Part shown: piece by piece, positions 174-12,611 of the stretch
How the letters are laid out: each line of letters begins with the position of its first letter
Position numbering within the stretch: the stretch's first letter is position 1
Origin: Gammaproteobacteria bacterium
GTDB taxonomy: Bacteria; Pseudomonadota; Gammaproteobacteria; CAJXQU01
Assembly (NCBI GenBank): GCA_026984775.1
Contig: JALSRM010000069.1
Location: 28,939 to 92,938, forward strand
DNA: 64,000 nt
Direction: 5' to 3'
The notes under the pieces: generated by a model
Seen by the model: only the letters and a program-made list of their open reading frames with translations
The model's database searches: none
Told to the model about the DNA's origin: nothing
Program-made: the position numbers and the translations under genes

Positions 174-1997
174 ATGAGTGAAACAACCGCCCGATGGGAC
201 GAACATGATCCCGATCAGGAAGAACTTGGATTCAGAACAGCAAGTTTTGTTCAAAACGATCTGCTCCTTTCGCTGATCTATTTTGGGCTTATCCTGTTCC
301 TTCCACTGATCCTTTGGAATCATGTAGATGACTATGTTATTTTTCTCTGGCAGGTCGGCATGTTTACCATCTCGGCCATTCGCTGGCTATGCCGCTATAC
401 CATTACCAGTGGGAAAAAGGATAGGACCACTGATGACTTCTGGAACGGTGTTCTTATCTTTCTAACATTGATGGATGGGCTAGGTTGGGGCATTGGCGGT
501 GCCCTGCTCTTCCCCGCAGACTCGATCCTTTCCATGAGCCTGGTTGCACTTCTGCTGATAGGTATTGGTGGGGTAGGTGCTGTCTCTTATTCCGCGAGAA
601 TGTTGATCGCCATCCCCTACCTTTTATGTACCGTGTTGCCGTATATCACCCGTCTCTATGCTACAGGTGGTAATGAAGAGTTTTTGCTTGCCAGCATGCT
701 GGGGTTATTGACCATCATGTTCAGTTTTGCTGCCGATCGGCTGAGCCTGACATTGGGCACTGCACTTCAAATCGATGAACAAGATGAAGAAACCATCTTC
801 GCCCTGGAATCACAAAATGAACACCTCAGTAACATGGTTGAACGGAAAAGAAATCATGTGGCCCATCTTGAAAACGAGCTCACTAACATCACACATGAAC
901 TCGAGAAGGTTCATGGTGTCGTCACCAAACATGAAAAGGACTTGAGTCTTGTATGTGGCCGTATGATCAACCATCTAAACGATCTTGAAACGCTGAAACA
1001 GACATCACTTAACGATGATCAGAGCAAAGTGCTGGTTCGTATGGAAAAAAATGTTCGTTTTCTACTTGAGAGGTTGGGAGAAGATGAAATTGAGGAGGAA
1101 AACACACCCCAAGCTGTTAGTGGTCATGAACCCGCTTACGATAAGGATGAAGCATCTAATTCTCCAGTAGTATTGATTGTAGAGCCTGATAGCCATGAAC
1201 GTGAAAAAATCGAGGCATGCCTGCAAGAACTGAACCTGGACTACACCAGTGTAGAGGATGTCCCTGCTGCTCTATCGGCTCTGTGTCAAGCAGAAGACCA
1301 TTTCGGGTATGAACTCATCATTGCCAGTCTGTACATGCCGGAAATGGATGGAATCGGCTTTGCGGAATGCCTGAAGGATGATCAGGAATTTCAGAGTATC
1401 CGCACCATTCTGACCTATAGCGACAAGCTGCCAAGCAAGAACCGACTGATAAAGGCCGGTGTTGACTGGGTAGTACAAAAAGAGACTCTGAAAGAAGATC
1501 TACCACAGGCCATTGAGAGTCTTGTCAACGGAGAAAGACTTTCACAATTGCCCGCATCTATTGAATCCCTGGTTGAAGATACCATCCAGATATCACTCCC
1601 GCCTGATGAGCAGGAACCAATAACTGCCCCATCATCTGTAGACAAATCTGTACTCGAAGGACTTCGATCATCAACTACCCTCAATTTTATCGAGATCGTC
1701 AACGACTTTCTGGAAGATGCGCCACGATTGATCAGCGAAGCCAGAGAAACCCTATCAAAAAATGACCTTCCAGGTTTGCAAAGATCCATCAGGGAACTGG
1801 GCAATCGCAGTCTGCATATAGGGGCTAACGATCTTGCAGATTTGGCCATGTCGGTTGAATCCGCGATTACCGAAAATGGGATAGACAGAGTGCCTGGCAT
1901 GCTGCAGATGATCGAAGCGGAATTCATCCAAGTCGAGTCAGTACTGCTGGGTGAACTGACCAATGGCGCCCTTGTATCTGACCCGTTTAAACACTGA
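174..1997 (+). CDS. Membrane-anchored signalling protein: polytopic N-terminal sensor-like domain, coiled coil, degenerate receiver (REC) domain and HPt-like C-terminal domain; no kinase domain
   Basis: 607-aa ORF with AAGGAG Shine-Dalgarno just upstream of the ATG. The N-terminal ~190 aa are hydrophobic (motif LMDGLGWGIGG). A heptad-like coiled-coil segment follows. The REC-like block is VVLIVEPDS...ELIIASLYMPEMDG...ILTYSD...VVQKE. The C-terminal block IVNDFLEDAP...GLQRSIRELGNRSLHIGANDLADLAMSVE has the HPt layout. Confidence 0.8.
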   Translation: MSETTARWDEHDPDQEELGFRTASFVQNDLLLSLIYFGLILFLPLILWNHVDDYVIFLWQVGMFTISAIRWLCRYTITSGKKDRTTDDFWNGVLIFLTLMDGLGWGIGGALLFPADSILSMSLVALLLIGIGGVGAVSYSARMLIAIPYLLCTVLPYITRLYATGGNEEFLLASMLGLLTIMFSFAADRLSLTLGTALQIDEQDEETIFALESQNEHLSNMVERKRNHVAHLENELTNITHELEKVHGVVTKHEKDLSLVCGRMINHLNDLETLKQTSLNDDQSKVLVRMEKNVRFLLERLGEDEIEEENTPQAVSGHEPAYDKDEASNSPVVLIVEPDSHEREKIEACLQELNLDYTSVEDVPAALSALCQAEDHFGYELIIASLYMPEMDGIGFAECLKDDQEFQSIRTILTYSDKLPSKNRLIKAGVDWVVQKETLKEDLPQAIESLVNGERLSQLPASIESLVEDTIQISLPPDEQEPITAPSSVDKSVLEGLRSSTTLNFIEIVNDFLEDAPRLISEARETLSKNDLPGLQRSIRELGNRSLHIGANDLADLAMSVESAITENGIDRVPGMLQMIEAEFIQVESVLLGELTNGALVSDPFKH

Positions 1998-2015: not shown

Positions 2016-4775
2016 ATGAAGATAAATGGCCAGGAAATCGAACAGGAATATAATGAATCATTCCTGCTCAAAGAGGAGTTGATGAAAAATACGCTTCTGT
2101 ATTTTTTATTTTCTGGTCTGCTTGCAATTTTTATCTATGCAGTCTTGCAAGATCAGAAAATCAATGCACTGCTGCAACCCTGGTTGATCTGCATTGAGGC
2201 AAATACTGCTGTATTGATCATTTTCCATCACTATTTTCGCCGAAAGAGAAAGAATCCATTTCACAGTATATTTTTCTCCATTGGATTTATTATTGATGGG
2301 CTGTTCTGGGGAAGCCTGGGAGTCCTGCTACCGGGGAACATACCTCCAGAAGCACACGTACTCATTATTATGTCGCTGGCAGCTTTTGTTGCACTGGGAA
2401 TACCCCTGATTACCTCCACTTCCTGGCTGGTGGGTATATTCCCTAGTGCAGTATTTTTGCCATCCATATTTTATTATCTTACTGATCTCAACCCTTTATC
2501 GGTCGGTAATGGGCTTGTTATTGCTTCAATTATTCCTGTCATACTCAGAATCACCCGACTCATCCGTGATAACAAATCGCGATCGGACTCACTGGTAAAG
2601 AAACACCAATGGTTGATCAAACAACTCAATGAATTCGTTGAAAGAACAGAGCTGGCCAACCTTGAGCTAAAGAAAGAAATTGCCGAAAGAGAAAAAACCG
2701 AGATCGAACTCCGAAAAGCAAAAGAAGAAGCCGAAGCCGCAGCCAAAGCAAAAAGTGAATTTCTCGCCACTATGAGTCATGAAATACGGACCCCCATGAA
2801 TGGCATCCTTGGCATGGCAGAGCTGCTGATAAAAACTGAACTCAACAGCAAACAGAAACGTTTCGCTGAAACAATACACAAATCCGGTAACGCTTTGTTG
2901 ACGATCATCAACGATATCCTCGATTTCTCAAAGATTGAAGCCGGTAAACTCGAACTCAATACCCGTGTCTTCGACCTGCGACTATTGATCGAAGATATAG
3001 GTGTCATGTTTGCGGAACAGGCCCACCGAAAAGGTTTGGAACTGATCTGTAACTACCCTGCAGATGGCCACTCCATGTTCCGTGGGGATGCTGAGAGAAT
3101 AAGACAGATCCTGGTTAACCTGATTGGTAATGCACTCAAGTTCACAGAAAAAGGTGAGATTCAGCTCAAGGTAGAGCTGTTTGAAAAGAAGGGCAACATT
3201 TTTCTGATCCGTTTCAGAGTTCGGGACACGGGTATTGGTATTTTGCCTGAAGTCCAGGAAAAAATATTCGAATCGTTCTCCCAGGCAGACAGCTCTACGA
3301 CACGTAAGTTTGGCGGTACAGGACTCGGACTGACCATCTGCAAGAAACTGACACAATTAATGAAAGGTACAATAGGCGTGAAAAGTAAACCGGGAAAGGG
3401 ATCGGTCTTCTGGTTTGCTATTCCATTGAAAAAAGAGGCTGATGTTAAACAACCCCTATCCAGACAGGATCTCAAGGGTATTCGTATACTGATTGCTGAC
3501 AGTAATAAAACCAACCGGGAAATTCTTGAACAACAATTTACCAGTTGGGGTATGGATTATTATTCAACCGATAGTGCAAGAACGACACTCCGTGTACTTC
3601 ATAATGCCCAAAAACAAGGCTTCCCCTTCCAACTCGCAATTCTGGACAATCAGCTAAAGGATTTGGATGGTGTAAGTCTCGCACGAAAGATCAAAAATAG
3701 CCCCGACATTGCCGACACCAAACTCATTATGCTGAGCTCTGTTGGCAATATGGAACAGACTGGACAGTGGTTGATGGCAGGTATCGAAAGCTATCTAAAC
3801 AAGCCGATCAGACAAAATGAACTTTACCAGACACTGTTGAATACCATTGACTCTGAGGGATTGAAAAATGATTCCTTTGAGGAGGATCAAATAAATAAGG
3901 AAGAACAAGAAGTTGTCAATCTGAAAGGGCATGTTCTTGTCGCAGAAGACAACCTGGTCAATCAGGAACTGGTCCGGGAGATGTTATCACAACTTGGTTG
4001 TTCAGCCGAGATCGTAGATAACGGACGCAAGGCGGTTGAGGTGCTCACAGAACACTCGCTGGATAATCTGCACAAACCTTTTGATCTCGTCCTGATGGAT
4101 TGTCAGATGCCGGAAATGGATGGTTTTGAGGCCACCCAAAATATCCGACAGTGGGAATCAAGGCAAAAAATTGTACAACGAATACCCATTATCGCACTGA
4201 CCGCCAACGCTATGGAAGGTGATAGAGAGAGATGTCTTGAATCCGGCATGGATGATTACATGACGAAACCTTTTAATCTCGATCAGCTAGGTGCGCTGTT
4301 GCATCAGTGGCTACCACTGTTGGCAAGGGAAAATAACAGTGAATATGTACATAAGATGAATAAAACCTCAACAGAGACGTTCAATGAAGCTGCCGAGGAG
4401 TCTCGTAACGTTGCCCAACTGAATCCTGATGCTCTGAATAACATCCGCAAACAACAGCGGGGAGGGCAGCCCAATATTCTCACCAGAGTGATCCGATTAT
4501 TCCTGGAAAACTCCCAGAAGACCATTCAAGCTCTTGAGACAGCCATCTCCAACGGAGATCCGGTAGCCCTGCAACGAAATGCGTACAGTCTTCGATCCAG
4601 TTGCTCTACCGTCGGTGCAACAGCACTTGCTGAAATTTGTTCAGAACTCGAAACACTAGGCAAGGCAGAAAATGTTGATGAGGCCCAAACACAGTTGAGT
4701 GTACTCGAGTTTGAATATGATGCTGTGTGTATGGCATTGAACAACATTATCAATAGCGAGTTGGAATCTGTATGA
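2016..4775 (+). CDS. Hybrid sensor histidine kinase: membrane N-terminal domain, HisKA, HATPase_c, two REC domains, C-terminal HPt-like domain
   Basis: 919-aa ORF. The H-box ATMSHEIRTPMNGILGMAELL and N/G-box motifs (NLIGNALKFT, RDTGIGI, GGTGLGL) are present. REC1 is IRILIADSN...LAILDNQLKDLDG...LNKP. REC2 is HVLVAEDN...LVLMDCQMPEMDG...MTKPF. The C-terminal block IRLFLENSQ...ALQRNAYSLRSSCSTVGATALAEICSELE is HPt-like. A better SD (AGAGGAG) precedes an in-frame ATG at 2082, so the true start may be 2082. Confidence 0.88.
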   Translation: MKINGQEIEQEYNESFLLKEELMKNTLLYFLFSGLLAIFIYAVLQDQKINALLQPWLICIEANTAVLIIFHHYFRRKRKNPFHSIFFSIGFIIDGLFWGSLGVLLPGNIPPEAHVLIIMSLAAFVALGIPLITSTSWLVGIFPSAVFLPSIFYYLTDLNPLSVGNGLVIASIIPVILRITRLIRDNKSRSDSLVKKHQWLIKQLNEFVERTELANLELKKEIAEREKTEIELRKAKEEAEAAAKAKSEFLATMSHEIRTPMNGILGMAELLIKTELNSKQKRFAETIHKSGNALLTIINDILDFSKIEAGKLELNTRVFDLRLLIEDIGVMFAEQAHRKGLELICNYPADGHSMFRGDAERIRQILVNLIGNALKFTEKGEIQLKVELFEKKGNIFLIRFRVRDTGIGILPEVQEKIFESFSQADSSTTRKFGGTGLGLTICKKLTQLMKGTIGVKSKPGKGSVFWFAIPLKKEADVKQPLSRQDLKGIRILIADSNKTNREILEQQFTSWGMDYYSTDSARTTLRVLHNAQKQGFPFQLAILDNQLKDLDGVSLARKIKNSPDIADTKLIMLSSVGNMEQTGQWLMAGIESYLNKPIRQNELYQTLLNTIDSEGLKNDSFEEDQINKEEQEVVNLKGHVLVAEDNLVNQELVREMLSQLGCSAEIVDNGRKAVEVLTEHSLDNLHKPFDLVLMDCQMPEMDGFEATQNIRQWESRQKIVQRIPIIALTANAMEGDRERCLESGMDDYMTKPFNLDQLGALLHQWLPLLARENNSEYVHKMNKTSTETFNEAAEESRNVAQLNPDALNNIRKQQRGGQPNILTRVIRLFLENSQKTIQALETAISNGDPVALQRNAYSLRSSCSTVGATALAEICSELETLGKAENVDEAQTQLSVLEFEYDAVCMALNNIINSELESV

Positions 4776-4877: not shown

Positions 4878-7061
4878 ATGTTACCTGTCAATGAAGAAAA
4901 AAATAGCCCTTTAATACTCGTCATCGATGATGATGTCACGATCCGTTTCATGATCAATGAAACTCTCGAGACACTAGGGTTCATCGTTGAAGAGGCTGAA
5001 AATGGTATCCAGGGGATTGAACGTGCTAGGGAGCTGAAGCCAGATATCATACTTCTTGATGTGATGATGCCGGAAATGGATGGGTTCACCGCCTGTCCAC
5101 AGATCCGGGAGATACCACACTGCAGACACACACCTGTTTTGATGATGACTGGGCTGGATGATATCGAATCAATCAACAAGGCCTATCAGGTCGGTGCTAC
5201 TGACTTTGCAACCAAACCACTGAATTATACTCTCTTGTCACATCGCCTCCTCTACATGTTACGTTCGAAACAGACAGCTGATGAATTACGTGCAAATCAG
5301 GAAAAACTCGATCATGCACAACGACTGGCCAAACTTGGCTACTGGGAATGGGATCTAAACAATTTTGTTACCTGGTCTGAACAGGTAACAGAAACTTTCT
5401 GGCTCCCCAAAGGCAAGACCTGCGGTGAACTCTCCTACTTCTTTCAGAACCTTCACAAAAAAGACATGGAGAAAGTCCGGGCGGCACTAAAACTGGCCAA
5501 GGAAAAAGAGCAAAATTTCAGTTTGGAATATCGCATCCGAAATCGCGAAGGGAAAGTCCGTATTATCTTTCACGAGGCAAAGGTGAATTACAATGAAGGT
5601 AGAAAACCTATCAGCCTGATTGGAACCATACAAGACATTACTGAACGCAAACGTGCAGAATATGAGATCCAGAAGCTGGCTAATTATGACAAGGTCACGG
5701 GGCTCCCAAACAGAACTTCGCTACGCCAGAAGCTTGAAAAAATTATTGCCAGAGCACCTTCCAGTCAACAAGTAACTGCCATCTTGACGCTCGATCTCGA
5801 TCATTTCAAACGTCTCAACGACACCCTTGGCCATCAGGCAGGAGATCAACTCCTGCGAAAAATTGCCTCCCGCCTGAATGAATTTATTGAAAATAGTGCA
5901 TACGGTTCCGTTGATCTAACCTCGACCAGATTGCAACAGAAAAAGCATGCTCTTGAATTGACACTCTCTCATTTCGGAGGCGATGAATTTGTTATTCTGA
6001 TCGATGGAGCTCCTACAATTGAAAATGTGGCTTCAATTGCACGAAAGCTTAATGAGATCATCGCTGAACCTATCGATTTAGACGGCAATGTTATCTCAAT
6101 GACAGCGAGTATCGGCATTAGCGCCTGGCCTGAAGACGGTAAGGATGTTGATACCCTCCTCAAGCAAAGCGGCTCCGCTCTATACCATGCAAAAAGCGAA
6201 GGCAGGAACTGCTACAAGTTTTTCACCGCAGCCATGAATGCACGCGCTTTTGAGCGTTTGTCTCTGGAAATCAATTTGCGCAAGGCAATCGAAAAAGAGC
6301 AATTCATGTTGTTCTATCAACCAAAAGTAGATGCCCTTTCTGGGAGTATATTGGGTATGGAGGCATTGATCCGATGGAAGCATCCTGAACTTGGCATGAT
6401 ATCTCCGGCGGATTTTATTCCTGTTGCGGAACAGACAGGAATGATCATTCCAATTGGCCAATGGATCTTCGAAGAAGCCTGCCGTTTCCTGAATAAGATT
6501 GAAGAACACAATCTCCCACCTCTTACTGTAGCCCTCAATCTTTCCGGTGCTCAATTTACACAGAAAGGGCTCCCTGAGGAGCTTGGCAATAGTGTTGCCA
6601 AGGCGGGTATCGCCCCTCAGCAGATTGAACTCGAGATCACTGAAAGTCTGTTGATGGAAAATATCGAAGAAGCTATCAAAATCATGAACCGGCTACGAGA
6701 GATCGGGTTTTCAATTGCAATCGATGATTTCGGAACCGGGTATTCCTCTCTCTCGTATCTAAAACGCTTTCCGGCAGCAACTTTGAAAATTGATCAATCG
6801 TTCATTCGTGATATCGACAAGGATGCCGATGATCGCTCTATTGTTCAAGCCATCATCACGCTGGCACACAGCCTGCGCCTCAAAGTGGTTGCCGAAGGCA
6901 TAGAAAAACGCGAACAACTCGCCGTGCTGAGAGAACAGGGCTGCGATCTTATTCAGGGCTATTACTACAGCCACCCCCTCTGTTGCGAAGATTTTCTGGA
7001 CTGGATTAGCAACCGCGAAGACGATCCTGTTGACGAACTTGAAGCGACCATGGCTATATAA
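4878..7061 (+). CDS. Response regulator with REC-PAS-GGDEF-EAL architecture (diguanylate cyclase/phosphodiesterase)
   Basis: 727-aa ORF. The receiver is LILVIDDD...IILLDVMMPEMDG...MMTG...ATKPL. A PAS-like segment follows. GGDEF motifs are RLNDTLGHQAGD and HFGGDEFVIL. EAL motifs are EALIRW, QPKVD, DDFGTGYSSLSYL, KIDQSF and EGIE. Confidence 0.9.
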   Translation: MLPVNEEKNSPLILVIDDDVTIRFMINETLETLGFIVEEAENGIQGIERARELKPDIILLDVMMPEMDGFTACPQIREIPHCRHTPVLMMTGLDDIESINKAYQVGATDFATKPLNYTLLSHRLLYMLRSKQTADELRANQEKLDHAQRLAKLGYWEWDLNNFVTWSEQVTETFWLPKGKTCGELSYFFQNLHKKDMEKVRAALKLAKEKEQNFSLEYRIRNREGKVRIIFHEAKVNYNEGRKPISLIGTIQDITERKRAEYEIQKLANYDKVTGLPNRTSLRQKLEKIIARAPSSQQVTAILTLDLDHFKRLNDTLGHQAGDQLLRKIASRLNEFIENSAYGSVDLTSTRLQQKKHALELTLSHFGGDEFVILIDGAPTIENVASIARKLNEIIAEPIDLDGNVISMTASIGISAWPEDGKDVDTLLKQSGSALYHAKSEGRNCYKFFTAAMNARAFERLSLEINLRKAIEKEQFMLFYQPKVDALSGSILGMEALIRWKHPELGMISPADFIPVAEQTGMIIPIGQWIFEEACRFLNKIEEHNLPPLTVALNLSGAQFTQKGLPEELGNSVAKAGIAPQQIELEITESLLMENIEEAIKIMNRLREIGFSIAIDDFGTGYSSLSYLKRFPAATLKIDQSFIRDIDKDADDRSIVQAIITLAHSLRLKVVAEGIEKREQLAVLREQGCDLIQGYYYSHPLCCEDFLDWISNREDDPVDELEATMAI

Positions 7062-7830: not shown

Positions 7831-9009
7831 CTATTTTGACTTAGGACTTCCCTGCCCGTTTTTCATCAGCACTTCGGGGCTGGTACCTGAAGGTAATACC
7901 GATGGTTTATTCTGAGCTTCCTTTTGAGTTGAAATATCCGGCTTTTTACCTTTTTCAATGATCAGCTCATCAAGAGAGCGGCGCAACATTTTGCCCTTGT
8001 AGGCAGGCAGTGCATAGACCCAACCACTGGTTTTTCTGCCAAGTATTTCGGCCTGTTCTTTTGCGGAGGGTTTTTTACTCTTGTTGTCTTTTCCTTCAGA
8101 TCCGGACGATGTCTCCTCTCCCTTGTAATCAAAAGAAAATTCTGCCCAGACCTGATCATCGATCTTTGCAGATTTTACCTTCATCACCAGTCCATCAAAA
8201 GTTTCATAAACCGTAGTCAGGGTTTGGTCCGGCCATTTGAAACTCTTTGCACTGTTGACATCATTGAATTGGAGATCTTCGACCACTGATGCGAGGCTGT
8301 TGACAGTAGTCTGGGAGCGAACTTCATATCCTTCTGGAATATTCTGCAACACATAGTCAACATCATCCTTCTCCTTGCGACTGACCCGTACGGTCTTATC
8401 ACCACCATGTTCAATGGTAATGCTTTTCAACCTGTCTGACGCCAGATCGATGAGACTGTTATCCATCCATTCAACAGGCTCATCAGAAAGAACGACTTTG
8501 CCTTTAACAAGATAGGACTGCTTCTCACCGGCTCTACGCACATAGATAGAGTCGACTGTGCCGTCTGAACGGTTGACACGCTCCTTGCCAATCAAGAGAG
8601 AGGCAAGAATATTTCCATCTTTATCCATCAAGGTTACTTGTCTGGACTTCGCTTTTTTGCTCGTGACATCTTCAACCTGTAGTCGGGAATACAACGCTGG
8701 ATTGGCCGTCTTGGCCTCACGAATTTCGAGTTTACTGATGGCTATCACCAAAGGCTTGATACGATTGACAAGTGCCGGATAGCCACCGCGATTTTTCACT
8801 ACCCACTTGTCCCCCAGCTTCTCCAAGGTAACTGTGTTCTTGCCGGTTTTTATCTCGACGCTCGTAATCTGCTGGATTTGATCTGCCAGTTGAGGAAAAA
8901 GTGGTTCTTTTTCCATCACGGTTTCAGGTGAGCGGTGCTGGACTGAAAACCACGCCGCGATTACAAATAACAGCGTAATAATGGCAAATATAGATAATGA
9001 TTTTTTCAT
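7831..9009 (-). CDS. DUF4340-family protein (partner of GldG-like ABC auxiliary component); N-terminal signal/anchor
   Basis: 392-aa ORF with N-terminal hydrophobic helix MKKSLSIFAIITLLFVIAAW. It is the last gene of the ATPase-permease-GldG operon, the position DUF4340 proteins typically occupy. Confidence 0.6.
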   Translation of the reverse strand: MKKSLSIFAIITLLFVIAAWFSVQHRSPETVMEKEPLFPQLADQIQQITSVEIKTGKNTVTLEKLGDKWVVKNRGGYPALVNRIKPLVIAISKLEIREAKTANPALYSRLQVEDVTSKKAKSRQVTLMDKDGNILASLLIGKERVNRSDGTVDSIYVRRAGEKQSYLVKGKVVLSDEPVEWMDNSLIDLASDRLKSITIEHGGDKTVRVSRKEKDDVDYVLQNIPEGYEVRSQTTVNSLASVVEDLQFNDVNSAKSFKWPDQTLTTVYETFDGLVMKVKSAKIDDQVWAEFSFDYKGEETSSGSEGKDNKSKKPSAKEQAEILGRKTSGWVYALPAYKGKMLRRSLDELIIEKGKKPDISTQKEAQNKPSVLPSGTSPEVLMKNGQGSPKSK

Positions 9010-9012
9010 GGT

Positions 9013-10884
9013 TTATCTACGTGCTTTCCGTTTCATTCTGTTGAACAGTGCCATACCAATCGCCAGCAGGCCGATCAGAATTGGTATCAAGCCAATATTG
9101 TAAAACTTCAACCTGTTACCAAGTTGTTCAATACTTTTGTTGAGATCATGTTGGACATTTCGTAATTCCTTGCGTGTCTTGATCTGCTCCTGTTGGAAGT
9201 TTTCGATCGCCTTGCGTTGTTCGGGACTGAGCAAAACACCACCTTTCTCGGAACTCTGGAACTGCAGCTGGCTGATCTTCTCTTCGGTTTCCTTTAGCTT
9301 GGCTTGAAGGGCCTGTTCTCGTGCACGAAACTTCTTCTCGGCTTCCAGTTTTAATTCCTCGACCTTGGTGAACGGTCGTGCATACTGACTGCGACTACGC
9401 AAACTGATCAAATCCTTATTACCACCCAGAACATCGATACTGTTAAGCAAGAATTTCGCATTGTCAGCATGCGGACGTGGCACCCGTTGTCCCATAAAAT
9501 TCTGGAATTGCACCCAGAAGCGATCAGTAAGAATATCAGTATCTGCCACCACGACGATATTGATATCCTCTTTTGACTCCTGGACAAAGGTTGGATCCTT
9601 TTCATCGGACGCAGGCCGTCCTTCTGGATAGGCGGTCTCCACCTTGCCTGTGATTCGTGCAGCAATCACCAGTTCCTTGCCACCCGGTTTGAACTGATCT
9701 ACGAGTACCGAAGGATCCCGTACAAACATAATCGCATCCCTTTCGTAGGGCATGGATTTTTTACTGGTAAAGATCAGTGGTGTAAACGTTGTCTTGGCAT
9801 CTTTCACAGGTTCAAGAAAGCCAGCCGTACCAAGATTGATCAACTGGAGCTGGTTGGTTGAGAAATCATCTTTGTTGAAATGTTCCGGCCCCAGTCTCAA
9901 CCAGGGAATATAGGCAATTTCCTTCGGCCCACGTGGATTTCTTGACTGGACTCTGATCGAGGCATCAAGATCGCCTGCAATTTTTTCTGGATTGAATTCG
10001 ATACCCCATTTATCAAACAGTACTGGCATTTCTGAAAAAATCTGAGGCATGACCATCTGGTTGGTTGGATCGGGCATGGTTTGGTCCGATTCTGCCATGG
10101 GATCGACAAAGATCATCGCCTTTCCACCCTTGAGAATGAACTGGTCGATGGCGTAGAGGGTTTTATCCTTGAGTTTCTTCGGGTGAATCACCAGCAAGGT
10201 ATCGATCTCGGGCTCGATGTAACCTACCCTGACGCCAAGATCTCGCACCTGATATTCACTGCGAAGCATGTCGATAACCGCCCAGGCAGATGAGACTGGA
10301 CGTCCATCCGGCCCATTCTGGCCAAAAACTGGCAGACTGCTGATCACACCGATCACCCGATCTTTCGGATTGGCGAGTTGATAGACCATCTTGGTCAGAT
10401 CATATTCCAGCGACTGTTCCTTTTCCGGCTGAAAAAAGGGAATCGTGATCTCGTCATCCGTGGTGTTGGTACCAACCAGGCCGAAATAGGCATGTTCTCC
10501 ATTACCTCCCATCGGAAGAGGGTGCAGCCCATAACTAACAGCCTCATCTTCAAGATCAGAAAAGGGTTCTGGTTCTGCTACGATCAGCTTTATTTTGCCA
10601 TTTGCAGCTTTTGTGTATTCCTCCAGCATGTCACGCACCCGCGTACCATAGTTCCTCAGGGTTGGAATATCGTTGAGCAACTTGTTGGAAAAATAAAAAC
10701 GCAGTGTGATGGGTTCTTTCAGATCATGGAGAATGTTCTGCGTTCCCTTGGACAGGGTAAACAGTTTGTTCTCAGTCATATCCAACCGCCAGGACGTCAA
10801 TGTGCCACTGACAAGAATGTTAACCGCGAGAAATAGTACTATCGCAAGTCCGAGACTGATTAATGTGATGACCTTCTTACTCAT
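9013..10884 (-). CDS. GldG-like ABC-transport auxiliary component (ABC_transp_aux family)
   Basis: 623-aa ORF with N-terminal and C-terminal TM helices and a large periplasmic domain. It lies immediately downstream of the ABC-2 permease with a 4-nt gap. Confidence 0.65.
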   Translation of the reverse strand: MSKKVITLISLGLAIVLFLAVNILVSGTLTSWRLDMTENKLFTLSKGTQNILHDLKEPITLRFYFSNKLLNDIPTLRNYGTRVRDMLEEYTKAANGKIKLIVAEPEPFSDLEDEAVSYGLHPLPMGGNGEHAYFGLVGTNTTDDEITIPFFQPEKEQSLEYDLTKMVYQLANPKDRVIGVISSLPVFGQNGPDGRPVSSAWAVIDMLRSEYQVRDLGVRVGYIEPEIDTLLVIHPKKLKDKTLYAIDQFILKGGKAMIFVDPMAESDQTMPDPTNQMVMPQIFSEMPVLFDKWGIEFNPEKIAGDLDASIRVQSRNPRGPKEIAYIPWLRLGPEHFNKDDFSTNQLQLINLGTAGFLEPVKDAKTTFTPLIFTSKKSMPYERDAIMFVRDPSVLVDQFKPGGKELVIAARITGKVETAYPEGRPASDEKDPTFVQESKEDINIVVVADTDILTDRFWVQFQNFMGQRVPRPHADNAKFLLNSIDVLGGNKDLISLRSRSQYARPFTKVEELKLEAEKKFRAREQALQAKLKETEEKISQLQFQSSEKGGVLLSPEQRKAIENFQQEQIKTRKELRNVQHDLNKSIEQLGNRLKFYNIGLIPILIGLLAIGMALFNRMKRKARR

Positions 10885-10887
10885 GGT

Positions 10888-11637
10888 TTAACTTGCCTTC
10901 TTAGTATCGATTGCGAGCGTATTGAGATACAGCCACAGTATGATCAACGATGCAAAAAAGATGATGTCGCGGAGATCGATCACCCCTTTCATGATGGAAT
11001 TGAAATGGCTCAGAAAACTGAACGAACTGATCGCATCCAGTATGGACTGAGGTGCCCAGCCACGGAAGAAATCCAGTACCAGTGGGAACCCGCTGAGAAT
11101 AAACAGAAAACAGATCACAACACTGATAACAAAGGCAATTACCTGATTTTTCGTCAGTGCAGAGATACAGGAACCAATGGCGAGAAAACCACCTGCCATC
11201 AACAGACTGCCGATATAGCTGACCAAAATGACCGTGTTATCAGGATCACCGAGGTAATTGACTGTGATCCAAATGGGAAATGTAAGCGCCAAGGCAATCG
11301 CGGTAAAGAACCATGCAGCAAGATATTTTCCAATTACTGCCTCGGTCAAAGTGACGGGTAGAGTCATCAGCAGTTCAATCGTCCCAGTCTTGCGTTCTTC
11401 TGACCACAAGCGCATGGAAATCGCTGGAATAAGAAACAGGTAGAGCCACGGATGAAAGCTGAAGAACGGGATCAAATCCGCCTGATTGCTTTCGTAAAAA
11501 CCACCGATATAAAAAGTAAAGATACCGGTCAGAAAAAGAAAAATTACAATAAAAACATAAGCAACGGGGGTTGAGAAATAGGCCTTGAGCTCACGCCTGA
11601 AAATGGCCCCAACATTGTTCAAGAAAGAACTGCTCAT
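10888..11637 (-). CDS. ABC-2 family transporter permease (GldF-like)
   Basis: 249-aa polytopic membrane protein with six predicted TM segments. Its start overlaps the stop of the upstream ATPase gene. Confidence 0.75.
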   Translation of the reverse strand: MSSSFLNNVGAIFRRELKAYFSTPVAYVFIVIFLFLTGIFTFYIGGFYESNQADLIPFFSFHPWLYLFLIPAISMRLWSEERKTGTIELLMTLPVTLTEAVIGKYLAAWFFTAIALALTFPIWITVNYLGDPDNTVILVSYIGSLLMAGGFLAIGSCISALTKNQVIAFVISVVICFLFILSGFPLVLDFFRGWAPQSILDAISSFSFLSHFNSIMKGVIDLRDIIFFASLIILWLYLNTLAIDTKKAS

Positions 11638-12611
11638 GTCAGATGCTCCTCTTCTGTCAGTTTATCCGGCGCTCCGATGGTGACGTCCCGGAATACCTCG
11701 TCAATACGGCCCGTTTCAACCATCAATTGACTGATCTCCCAACCCTTCTCATGTGCCAAATCACTGATGGTTGCAACGATACTCTGCCCATCCTTCGGGA
11801 TGATCAGCAGTTGTGACAAACCGGCAGGCAATTCTTCGATCTCTACTGACAATACACTGGGGAGGTCTAAAAGCACCATCCGTGCAGCTTCACATTGCCC
11901 TGTATTCATTACCAACGCTACTGCATTGTGGTATTTCGATTTCGCGATCAGTTCAGTCGGAGTTCCGTCAAACAACAGTTTGCCCTTGGCTATAATGATG
12001 GCACGATCACAAACGGCATCGACCTCTTCGAGAATGTGAGTGGAGATGATAATCGCCTTGTCTTTTGCCATTTCCTTGATCAGTGTTCTAACTTCGTGCT
12101 TCTGATTGGGATCAAGCCCATCCGTTGGCTCGTCCATGATCAGGACTTCTGGATCGTGAAGTATGGCCTGGGCCATGCCTACCCTTCGCTTAAAGCCTTT
12201 TGAAAGCGTCTCGATCGGCTGTTCCATCACTCCTTCAATATGGATTTTCTTCACCACATCATCGATCCGCTCCTTCCGGTTACTCCCTTTGAGACCACGA
12301 ATATCCGCAATGAAATTGAGAAAGGAACGCGGTGTCATTTCTCCGTAGGCAGGTGCACCCTCCGGCAGATAACCCAAGACCCGTTTTGCTGCGATTGGCT
12401 CTTCACGAACGTCATGACCACACAGGCTAACCGTCCCCCGGGTTGGTTCGAGAAAACCAGTGATCATTTTCATGGTTGTCGATTTACCGGCACCGTTAGG
12501 GCCCAAAAAGCCGAGAACCTCACCACGCCTGACGGTGAAGGAAACATTGTCCACCGCACGTAGTGAACCGAAATCCTTGACAAGATTATTAACTTCTATC
12601 GCATTTTCCAT
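11634..12611 (-). CDS. ABC transporter ATP-binding protein (GldA-like)
   Basis: Walker A GPNGAGKST, signature LSKGFKRRVGMAQAI, Walker B LIMDEPTDGLD. 325 aa. Confidence 0.9.
   Translation of the reverse strand: MENAIEVNNLVKDFGSLRAVDNVSFTVRRGEVLGFLGPNGAGKSTTMKMITGFLEPTRGTVSLCGHDVREEPIAAKRVLGYLPEGAPAYGEMTPRSFLNFIADIRGLKGSNRKERIDDVVKKIHIEGVMEQPIETLSKGFKRRVGMAQAILHDPEVLIMDEPTDGLDPNQKHEVRTLIKEMAKDKAIIISTHILEEVDAVCDRAIIIAKGKLLFDGTPTELIAKSKYHNAVALVMNTGQCEAARMVLLDLPSVLSVEIEELPAGLSQLLIIPKDGQSIVATISDLAHEKGWEISQLMVETGRIDEVFRDVTIGAPDKLTEEEHLT

Follow-up and report, generated by a model that had tools for sequence, protein, structure and literature searches.

What role is left for a histidine phosphotransfer (HPt) fold that appears unable to relay a phosphoryl group? 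The question is raised by a 64,000-nucleotide stretch of DNA from a gammaproteobacterium (GenBank contig JALSRM010000069.1, positions 28,939 to 92,938 of the forward strand; hereafter the window), which opens with three co-directional genes, here called open reading frames (ORFs) 1 to 3 (Table 1). ORF2 encodes an unorthodox hybrid kinase that shares the HisKA-HATPase-REC(-REC)-HPt architecture of ArcB/BarA/TorS-type kinases (REC, receiver domain), yet, unlike these and unlike its own nearest relatives, it has a tyrosine (Tyr857) at the phospho-histidine position of its HPt domain, an unconstrained residue where a lysine is expected three positions further on (+3), and an additional gene, ORF1, inserted upstream. 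The answer we consider probable, judging from comparative sequence analysis, is that this HPt domain lost its phospho-histidine once, in an ancestor of the lineage, and was thereafter selected as a non-phosphorylatable receiver-docking module, or pseudo-HPt.

The C-terminal domain of ORF2 is, on the evidence of its structural model, a true HPt four-helix bundle. Pfam Hpt (PF01627) matches residues 825-904 with 47.6 bits, against a gathering cut-off of 24.6 bits, and the best matches of a phmmer search against all chains of the Protein Data Bank (PDB) are HPt proteins (AHP2 4pac, HptB 7c1i and the Chaetomium HPt 8pbw). An AlphaFold model, built from a 15-sequence alignment of the clade described below, reached a mean predicted local distance difference test score (pLDDT) of 90.7 and superposes on Pseudomonas aeruginosa HptB (7c1i) with template modelling (TM) scores of 0.81/0.89 and a root mean square deviation of 1.7 A; all of its best structural matches in the PDB are likewise HPt proteins. 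The C-terminal stretch carries ...ISNGDPVALQRNAYSLRSSCSTVGATALAEICSELE..., in which the Tyr857 codon is TAC. In the phmmer alignments the segment rnaYslRsS faces htaHsfKgG, placing Tyr857 opposite the phospho-histidine, a profile of the HPt domains of 117 homologues puts it in the histidine column, and in the model it lies in the middle of a helix (model residues 56-72). A sequence-only reading of this locus had proposed a tyrosine at exactly this position, and Pfam, phmmer, profile and structural superposition all bear it out; a profile alignment might have moved a genuine histidine into register, but the profile, pairwise and structural alignments all have tyrosine there. No histidine occurs in the last 125 residues of ORF2 (aa 795-919), and a domain without any histidine rules out an alternative phospho-histidine within it. 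Where an active HPt has H-x-x-K-[GS] with a solvent-exposed histidine as phospho-acceptor, ORF2 has Y-S-L-R-S and ORF1 has R-E-L-G-N. Judged by these residues, the Tyr-HPt of ORF2 should be unable to carry a phosphoryl group.

Tyrosine at this site is characteristic of a lineage. A search of 5.8 billion proteins recovered 16 full-length ORF2 orthologues from independent assemblies, at 55-66% identity, and A-Y-S-[LM]-x-S-S-C-x-T-[VI]-G-A is found in all of them, except that P0015 has threonine for tyrosine. Across the resulting 17-member clade the residue in the histidine column is thus tyrosine in 16 cases, threonine in one and histidine in none. At the four Tyr-clade loci compared at the DNA level, the residue is invariably encoded by TAC, while nearby codons for Leu, Arg, Ala, Cys and Gly show synonymous differences. 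In a neighbour-joining tree the 17 members form a single clade, sister to the histidine-bearing P0023, with the threonine variant nested within it; this topology indicates that histidine was lost once and that the change from tyrosine to threonine came later. The top homologues contribute 100 further HPt domains, and histidine is present in 98 of these. The remaining two belong to P0024 and P0027, 885-aa HAMP-containing hybrid kinases with alanine or glycine at the histidine site and alanine at +3, and to judge from their sequences these represent a second, independent loss, in which the replacement is unconserved and which looks like decay.

The wider family confirms how restricted the tyrosine is. 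When the clade's own HPt profile was searched exhaustively against 1.84 billion representatives, histidine was present in 174 of the 182 closest HPt domains, and tyrosine was confined to the clade and to P0121. The latter is a 1672-aa CHASE8-HAMP-HisKA-HATPase-REC-REC kinase with six HPt-like stretches (five by Pfam), including those at aa 838-925 and 1565-1667; one has tyrosine (AAYRFRSSSASLGA) and one serine at the histidine position. By sequence this kinase is unrelated to ORF2, and its Tyr-type HPt is an occurrence independent of the clade. A genome scan based on generic kinase motifs (MSHEIRTP and MDDYM[TA]K) returned only hybrid kinases of many phyla, 34-47% identical, and no orthologues.

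The sequence around the site suggests that the chemistry was lost while the domain was retained. Lysine at +3, a residue associated with phosphotransfer, is present in 98/98 His-type relatives, as opposed to four members of the Tyr clade, the others having glutamine (10), arginine, alanine or histidine. The sequence-only reading had remarked on the replacement of the canonical Lys-Gly pair by Arg-Ser; the arginine is indeed unusual, but serine at +4 is the norm in this HPt subfamily (77/98 His-type relatives). Near the site, Arg(-3), Cys(+6) and Thr(+8) are clade-specific invariants, and Glu(+22), invariant in His-type domains, is retained in 16/17 clade members. The only member without that glutamate is P0015 (L085:8001-10787), which combines isoleucine at +22 with its threonine for tyrosine; this single, anecdotal case suggests that Tyr857 and Glu879 may work as a pair. 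Because synonymous sites are saturated at 55-66% protein identity, selection was assessed from per-domain identity (Table 1) rather than from the ratio of nonsynonymous to synonymous substitution rates. The ratio of HPt to REC2 identity is 0.92 in the clade versus 0.75 in His-type relatives, and by this comparison of sequences the Tyr-HPt domain is under purifying selection. The suggestion, already made from the sequence alone, that such domains were repurposed as protein-interaction modules gains support from this selection, from the raised identity ratio and from the drift at Lys(+3).

Upstream of the missing step, the kinase is complete. His255 is invariant (17/17), as are the REC2 residues E644, D645, D695, T729 and K751 (17/17 each), and of the parts expected of an unorthodox hybrid kinase the HisKA histidine, HATPase_c and receiver aspartate are all present, the second phospho-histidine (H2) alone being absent, replaced by Tyr857. 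The earlier statement that the HisKA histidine and both receiver aspartates are intact holds in so far as H255, D544 and D695 are present, but it requires qualification for REC1: its phospho-Asp position is D in 12 and E in five of the 17 orthologues, and ORF2 lacks the second acidic-pocket residue, a position that varies across the clade (S/N/K/H/A/D/Q). From this pattern REC1 is probably a degenerate receiver, or pseudo-receiver, although ORF2 itself has aspartate there.

The downstream regulator has also been preserved. In ORF3 the receiver (Asp61) and the GGDEF and EAL motifs are all intact, and an alignment of five Tyr-clade and three His-clade orthologues shows DD/D/T/K, GGDEF and EAL retained in both clades. 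The nearest His-type relatives of ORF2 (P0020, P0023 and P0032; 43-45% identical and of ORF2-like length) share this arrangement, each adjoining a REC-PAS-GGDEF-EAL gene, and they do so without ORF1. One of them, P0020 (locus L087), additionally retains beside the kinase/regulator pair the glyQS and small-protein synteny of the ORF2 clade.

ORF1 is the other peculiarity of the clade. BLASTP aligns its receiver with REC1 of ORF2 (E=4e-7), its REC-HPt region with REC2-HPt (E=4e-6) and the two membrane domains with each other (E=2e-4); by these sequence matches, ORF1 is a diverged ORF2 paralogue without the kinase core. Only 14 homologues were found among the 5.8 billion proteins, 43-52% identical, every one partnered with a Tyr-type ORF2, such that the gain of ORF1, which is restricted to the Tyr clade, coincides with the change from histidine to tyrosine. 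Its C-terminal domain had been described from the sequence as HPt-like with arginine for histidine, which stands: Pfam Hpt matches it weakly but above the gathering cut-off, profile alignment places Arg540 in the histidine column, and the model (pLDDT 88.5) resembles HptB in Foldseek (TM 0.86/0.90). That reading had also proposed to check whether orthologues conserve these replacements; the tyrosine of ORF2 is conserved, and the ORF1 position drifts (R11, K3, S1 and Q1 in 16 sequences). An addition to that description is that the ORF1 receiver lacks its phospho-aspartate (Ser385 in our sequence); the position reads N9, K3, S2, T1 and D1 in the same number of sequences, and ORF1 does not qualify as a phospho-accepting receiver. 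The lone orthologue of the 16 with aspartate at this site is P0275 (VIADMWMPDMGG).

The explanation that we favour as probable starts from an ancestral His-Asp-His-Asp relay of the textbook kind, which acted on a cyclic di-GMP (c-di-GMP) enzyme and whose third step has been left without an acceptor in the Tyr clade. Under this hypothesis, ORF2 would autophosphorylate at His255, and Asp695 of REC2 would receive the phosphoryl group; the two sites are intact and invariant. The Tyr-HPt would dock receivers through the normal HPt surface, and because it could not take the phosphoryl group, REC2 would become the terminal acceptor in cis, with the Tyr-HPt no longer relaying but reading, or insulating, the state of the receiver. 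Retained alongside Glu879 and Arg854, Tyr857 would act as a steric mimic of histidine, capable of hydrogen bonding, with transfer blocked, in line with the effect of the histidine-to-tyrosine change in the pseudokinase DivL. Possible docking partners are REC2 of ORF2, the ORF3 receiver and the pseudo-receiver of ORF1, and ORF1 and ORF2 most likely form a membrane complex through matching pseudo-REC/pseudo-HPt contacts. Given that the HPt fold has been selected despite the loss of its acceptor, and that a partner made of pseudo-domains was added, docking without transfer seems the most economical reading. It builds on the identity and fold of the domain, the register of its residues, clade-wide conservation, the lost constraint on Lys(+3), the co-occurrence of ORF1 and the intact ORF3 receiver; from these we infer the docking without transfer, the partners concerned and an effect on c-di-GMP output. 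In sequence and predicted fold ORF2 bears the marks of a pseudo-HPt: at the histidine site of its HPt fold stands a non-phosphorylatable residue that orthologues conserve.

Degenerate phosphotransfer domains with other functions are documented elsewhere, and AHP6, DivL and the ChpA Xpt domains (see below) support repurposing of this kind. In Arabidopsis, AHP6/APHP1 (histidine to asparagine) competes for receiver binding (PMC7402358). It resembles ORF2 in its HPt fold, in the non-phosphorylatable residue at the histidine site and in the proposed binding of receivers without transfer; it is, however, a stand-alone eukaryotic protein competing with several genuine AHPs, whereas ORF2 is a bacterial kinase with no other HPt, its pseudo-HPt is fused in cis, and the residue is tyrosine. 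The nearest relatives of the ORF2 domain are bacterial hybrid-kinase HPt domains and not the plant AHP6 lineage, and the parallel is, by these sequence affinities, one of analogy, with no common descent of the degenerate state. Caulobacter DivL has a conserved tyrosine (Tyr550; alanine in one homologue) at the phospho-histidine of its dimerisation and histidine phosphotransfer (DHp) domain, binds DivK~P via its regulator-docking face without kinase or phosphatase activity, and when reverted from tyrosine to histidine impairs fitness and leaves binding unchanged (PMC4211667). The two cases share a lineage-wide tyrosine at the phospho-histidine of a phosphotransfer helix, with one non-Tyr exception each, and the repurposing of DivL to sense a phosphorylated receiver may, by analogy, extend to ORF2. 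DivL differs in that its tyrosine lies in a DHp (HisKA) dimer and not in a monomeric HPt bundle, and in that ORF2 retains a fully canonical kinase core, its receiver binding being a prediction. Even a genuine HPt protein can hold on to a phosphorylated receiver: Ypd1 retains Ssk1~P in an unusually stable complex (PMC6863705).

Several observations weigh against our interpretation. The 17 orthologues share ancestry, and counts of conserved residues among them are thus non-independent; the threonine of P0015 indicates that tyrosine is not strictly required; and the ORF3 receiver keeps every phospho-acceptor residue, so that a histidine donor is still to be expected, and docking without transfer names none. 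This receiver could be served by His255 directly, by an unlinked HPt, by His548 of ORF1, or by no donor at all, being controlled through binding alone.

The full conservation of the ORF3 receiver in the Tyr clade lends itself to an alternative hypothesis, which we regard as possible but tentative, namely that the relay is bypassed: Asp61 of ORF3 would be fed by another histidine (in an unlinked stand-alone HPt protein, at His255 of ORF2 directly, or at His548 of ORF1), and the Tyr-HPt would be a built-in competitor in cis that gates this route. ORF1 arose alongside the loss of histidine and has an invariant histidine at +8 within an invariant motif, G-x-R-S-x-H-x-G-A (16/16). The position corresponds, however, to the last turn at the helix end, where ORF2 has threonine and 78/98 His-type relatives have asparagine, and lysine or glycine is absent at +3/+4 from His548. 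The comparison of sequences suggests that His548 is a helix-capping residue; that it is a displaced phospho-acceptor is formally conceivable. As for other donors, when every six-frame ORF of the window was searched with the profile, the HPt domains of ORF1 and ORF2 were the only ones recovered; up to 8 kb away from the cluster, four further genomes likewise showed no other HPt, and direct transfer from a DHp domain to a separate regulator is unusual among hybrid kinases. The hypothesis does have precedents for both of its elements, since AHP6 works through competition (PMC7402358) and sensors that use the HPt of another sensor are documented (RscS with that of SypF, bioRxiv 10.1101/2021.03.29.437627; cross-use in CblS/CblT and PvrS/RcsC, PMC3842833). 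These pairs, together with RcsC/RcsD, are like ORF1 and ORF2 in bringing into one pathway two adjacent membrane proteins of sensor type, only one of which is catalytically complete, yet the shared HPt keeps its histidine in them, whereas neither ORF1 nor ORF2 has the canonical one.

A pseudo-HPt selected for docking should also be distinguished from a functionless remnant, a broken relay whose last domain is decaying or persists as a neutral C-terminal tail. Both the histidine and Lys(+3) have been lost, as such a fate would predict, and the independent loss in P0024/P0027 does resemble decay. Nevertheless, we consider this unlikely for ORF2, given that the domain is about as conserved as REC2 and far above the linkers, that its conservation relative to REC2 exceeds that of His-type relatives, that 35 of 126 columns in the HPt region are invariant, new clade-specific residues among them, and that none of the 17 orthologues has a truncation or frameshift.

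A more radical proposal is that Tyr857 is chemically active, either accepting the phosphoryl group from Asp695~P in a His-Asp-Tyr relay or speeding the hydrolysis of REC~P in a phosphatase-like manner, with invariant Arg854 and Glu879 forming a new active site. If true, this would add to two-component phosphorelays a kind of chemistry not known before. The conservation of the tyrosine, where the equivalent ORF1 position drifts between R, K, Q and S, would fit, as would the invariant Arg(-3), which lies on the same helix face and could stabilise a phosphoryl group, and a Tyr-bearing HPt is independently present in the multi-HPt kinase P0121. The transfer potential of phosphotyrosine is, in addition, comparatively high. 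To our knowledge, however, there is no case of phosphotransfer from aspartate to tyrosine in two-component systems, and Lys(+3) is unretained and one orthologue has threonine. DivL does not require its tyrosine as a site of phosphorylation (PMC4211667), and phosphotransfer ability is lacking in four of the nine Xpt domains of ChpA, the group to which the Ser/Thr types belong (PMC12632253). We therefore hold an active tyrosine to be highly improbable. Finally, an artefact, whether a CAC misread or misassembled as TAC or an alignment out of register, is conceivable in that a single base separates the two codons, but it is effectively refuted by the tyrosine, not histidine, of 16 independently assembled orthologues, by an identical copy on a second contig, by the comparison of TAC codons, and by three independent alignment methods and a structural superposition that give one register.

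Pseudo-kinases, pseudo-receivers and other degenerate parts of two-component systems have proved time and again to be regulators and not junk, and in this respect the theme is familiar. Work on pseudo-HPt domains, however, has centred on plants (AHP6), the unexplained Ser/Thr domains of ChpA being the only bacterial ones studied; a literature search on 'Hpt-like domain' gave no match. In ChpA, of the P. aeruginosa Pil-Chp system, the four unphosphorylated Xpt domains of nine, a group including Ser and Thr types, are proposed scaffolds (PMC12632253). These are, like the domain of ORF2, bacterial HPt folds with another residue for histidine, but ChpA, a kinase of the CheA type, combines several genuine Hpt domains with the degenerate ones, whereas ORF2, with its HisKA-type core and single, degenerate HPt, does not qualify as a ChpA-type Xpt array; P0121, with its Tyr and Ser domains, parallels ChpA more closely. 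What appears to be new, on comparative grounds, is a pseudo-HPt of a bacterial kinase that is present as a single copy, fused in cis and conserved in its tyrosine, and that co-evolved with a partner composed entirely of pseudo-domains. The clade thereby offers a natural experiment, in which a histidine-to-tyrosine change of single origin in a kinase's only HPt has been conserved since, close relatives are canonical, the output is a c-di-GMP enzyme and a pseudo-domain partner was gained along with the change. Beyond the role of an HPt fold unable to relay, it raises the questions of whether structure explains the recurrence of tyrosine at lost phospho-histidine sites (DivL and ORF2), and of how an intact downstream receiver is fed after the loss of a relay step.

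Table 1 Features of the signalling cluster and its flank in the window, with mean pairwise identity of ORF2 domains within the Tyr clade
Feature	Coordinates	Strand	Characteristics and key residues	Mean pairwise identity
ORF1	174..1997	+	607 aa; multi-pass membrane N-terminus, coiled coil, pseudo-receiver, His-less HPt fold	
ORF1 pseudo-receiver	1170..1517	+	aa 333-448; Pfam Response_reg E=9e-11; Ser385 (1326-1328) at phospho-Asp site	
ORF1 HPt-like domain	1659..1973	+	aa ~496-600; Pfam Hpt 27.7 bits (weak); Arg540 (1791-1793) at His position; His548 (1815-1817) at +8	
ORF2	2016..4775	+	919 aa; membrane domain, HisKA, HATPase_c, REC1, REC2, Tyr-HPt; unorthodox hybrid kinase	
ORF2 membrane domain				0.56
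ORF2 HisKA	2748-2945	+	Pfam E=7.7e-24; His255 (2778-2780)	0.89
ORF2 HATPase_c	3084-3431	+	Pfam E=1.8e-30; kinase core spans 2748..3431	0.79
ORF2 REC1	3483..3833	+	Asp544 (3645-3647)	0.67
ORF2 REC2	3933..4295	+	Asp695 (4098-4100); fully canonical receiver	0.76
ORF2 Tyr-HPt (pseudo-HPt)	4431..4751	+	aa 806-912; Pfam, alignments, model; Arg854 (4575-4577), Tyr857 (4584-4586), Arg860 (4593-4595; former Lys +3 site), Cys863 (4602-4604), Glu879 (4650-4652)	0.71
ORF2 linkers				0.29-0.46
ORF3	4878..7061	+	727 aa; REC-PAS-GGDEF-EAL response regulator (Pfam); Asp61 (5058-5060)	
DUF4340 / ABC_transp_aux / ABC-2 permease / ABC ATPase block	7831-12611	-	assigned by size, order and position	

The cluster has a stable genomic setting. 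Gene order is the same in 5/5 clade loci, in which a gene for a 184-191-aa protein is followed by ORF1, ORF2 and ORF3, and in the four loci with full flanks the cluster lies between glyQS and the DUF4340/ABC-transporter block, which adjoins it in L082, L084 and L085 too. Gammaproteobacterial placement of the clade is based on one source label, that of P0011 ('Gammaproteobacteria bacterium'), and on synteny of gammaproteobacterial type in its loci (rho-trxA-glyQS; rpoBC, tuf and a tRNA cluster).

The small upstream protein (173-191 aa) is the first gene of the cluster both in the Tyr clade and in the His-type relative L087, and it consequently belongs to the ancestral system. Copies lie at L081:560-1129 (directly upstream of window position 1), L082:5609-6178, L083:5544-6098, L084:5461-6030, L085:5425-6000 and L087:6458-6979; a Pfam search with the 189-aa protein matched no family. 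Its C-terminal residue is histidine in 6/6 copies. ORF1, likewise, ends in Lys-His in 14/16 orthologues (last codon 1992-1994 in the window), and its terminal histidine is invariant in a 12-sequence alignment, in a tail predicted to be disordered (pLDDT < 50). At the far end of the window, an Rfam match to the Pseudomonas small RNA P26 (55953-56003, minus strand; 37.2 bits, gathering score 36) lies directly upstream of an rpoB-sized ORF (51755..55870), consistent with a gammaproteobacterial chromosome.

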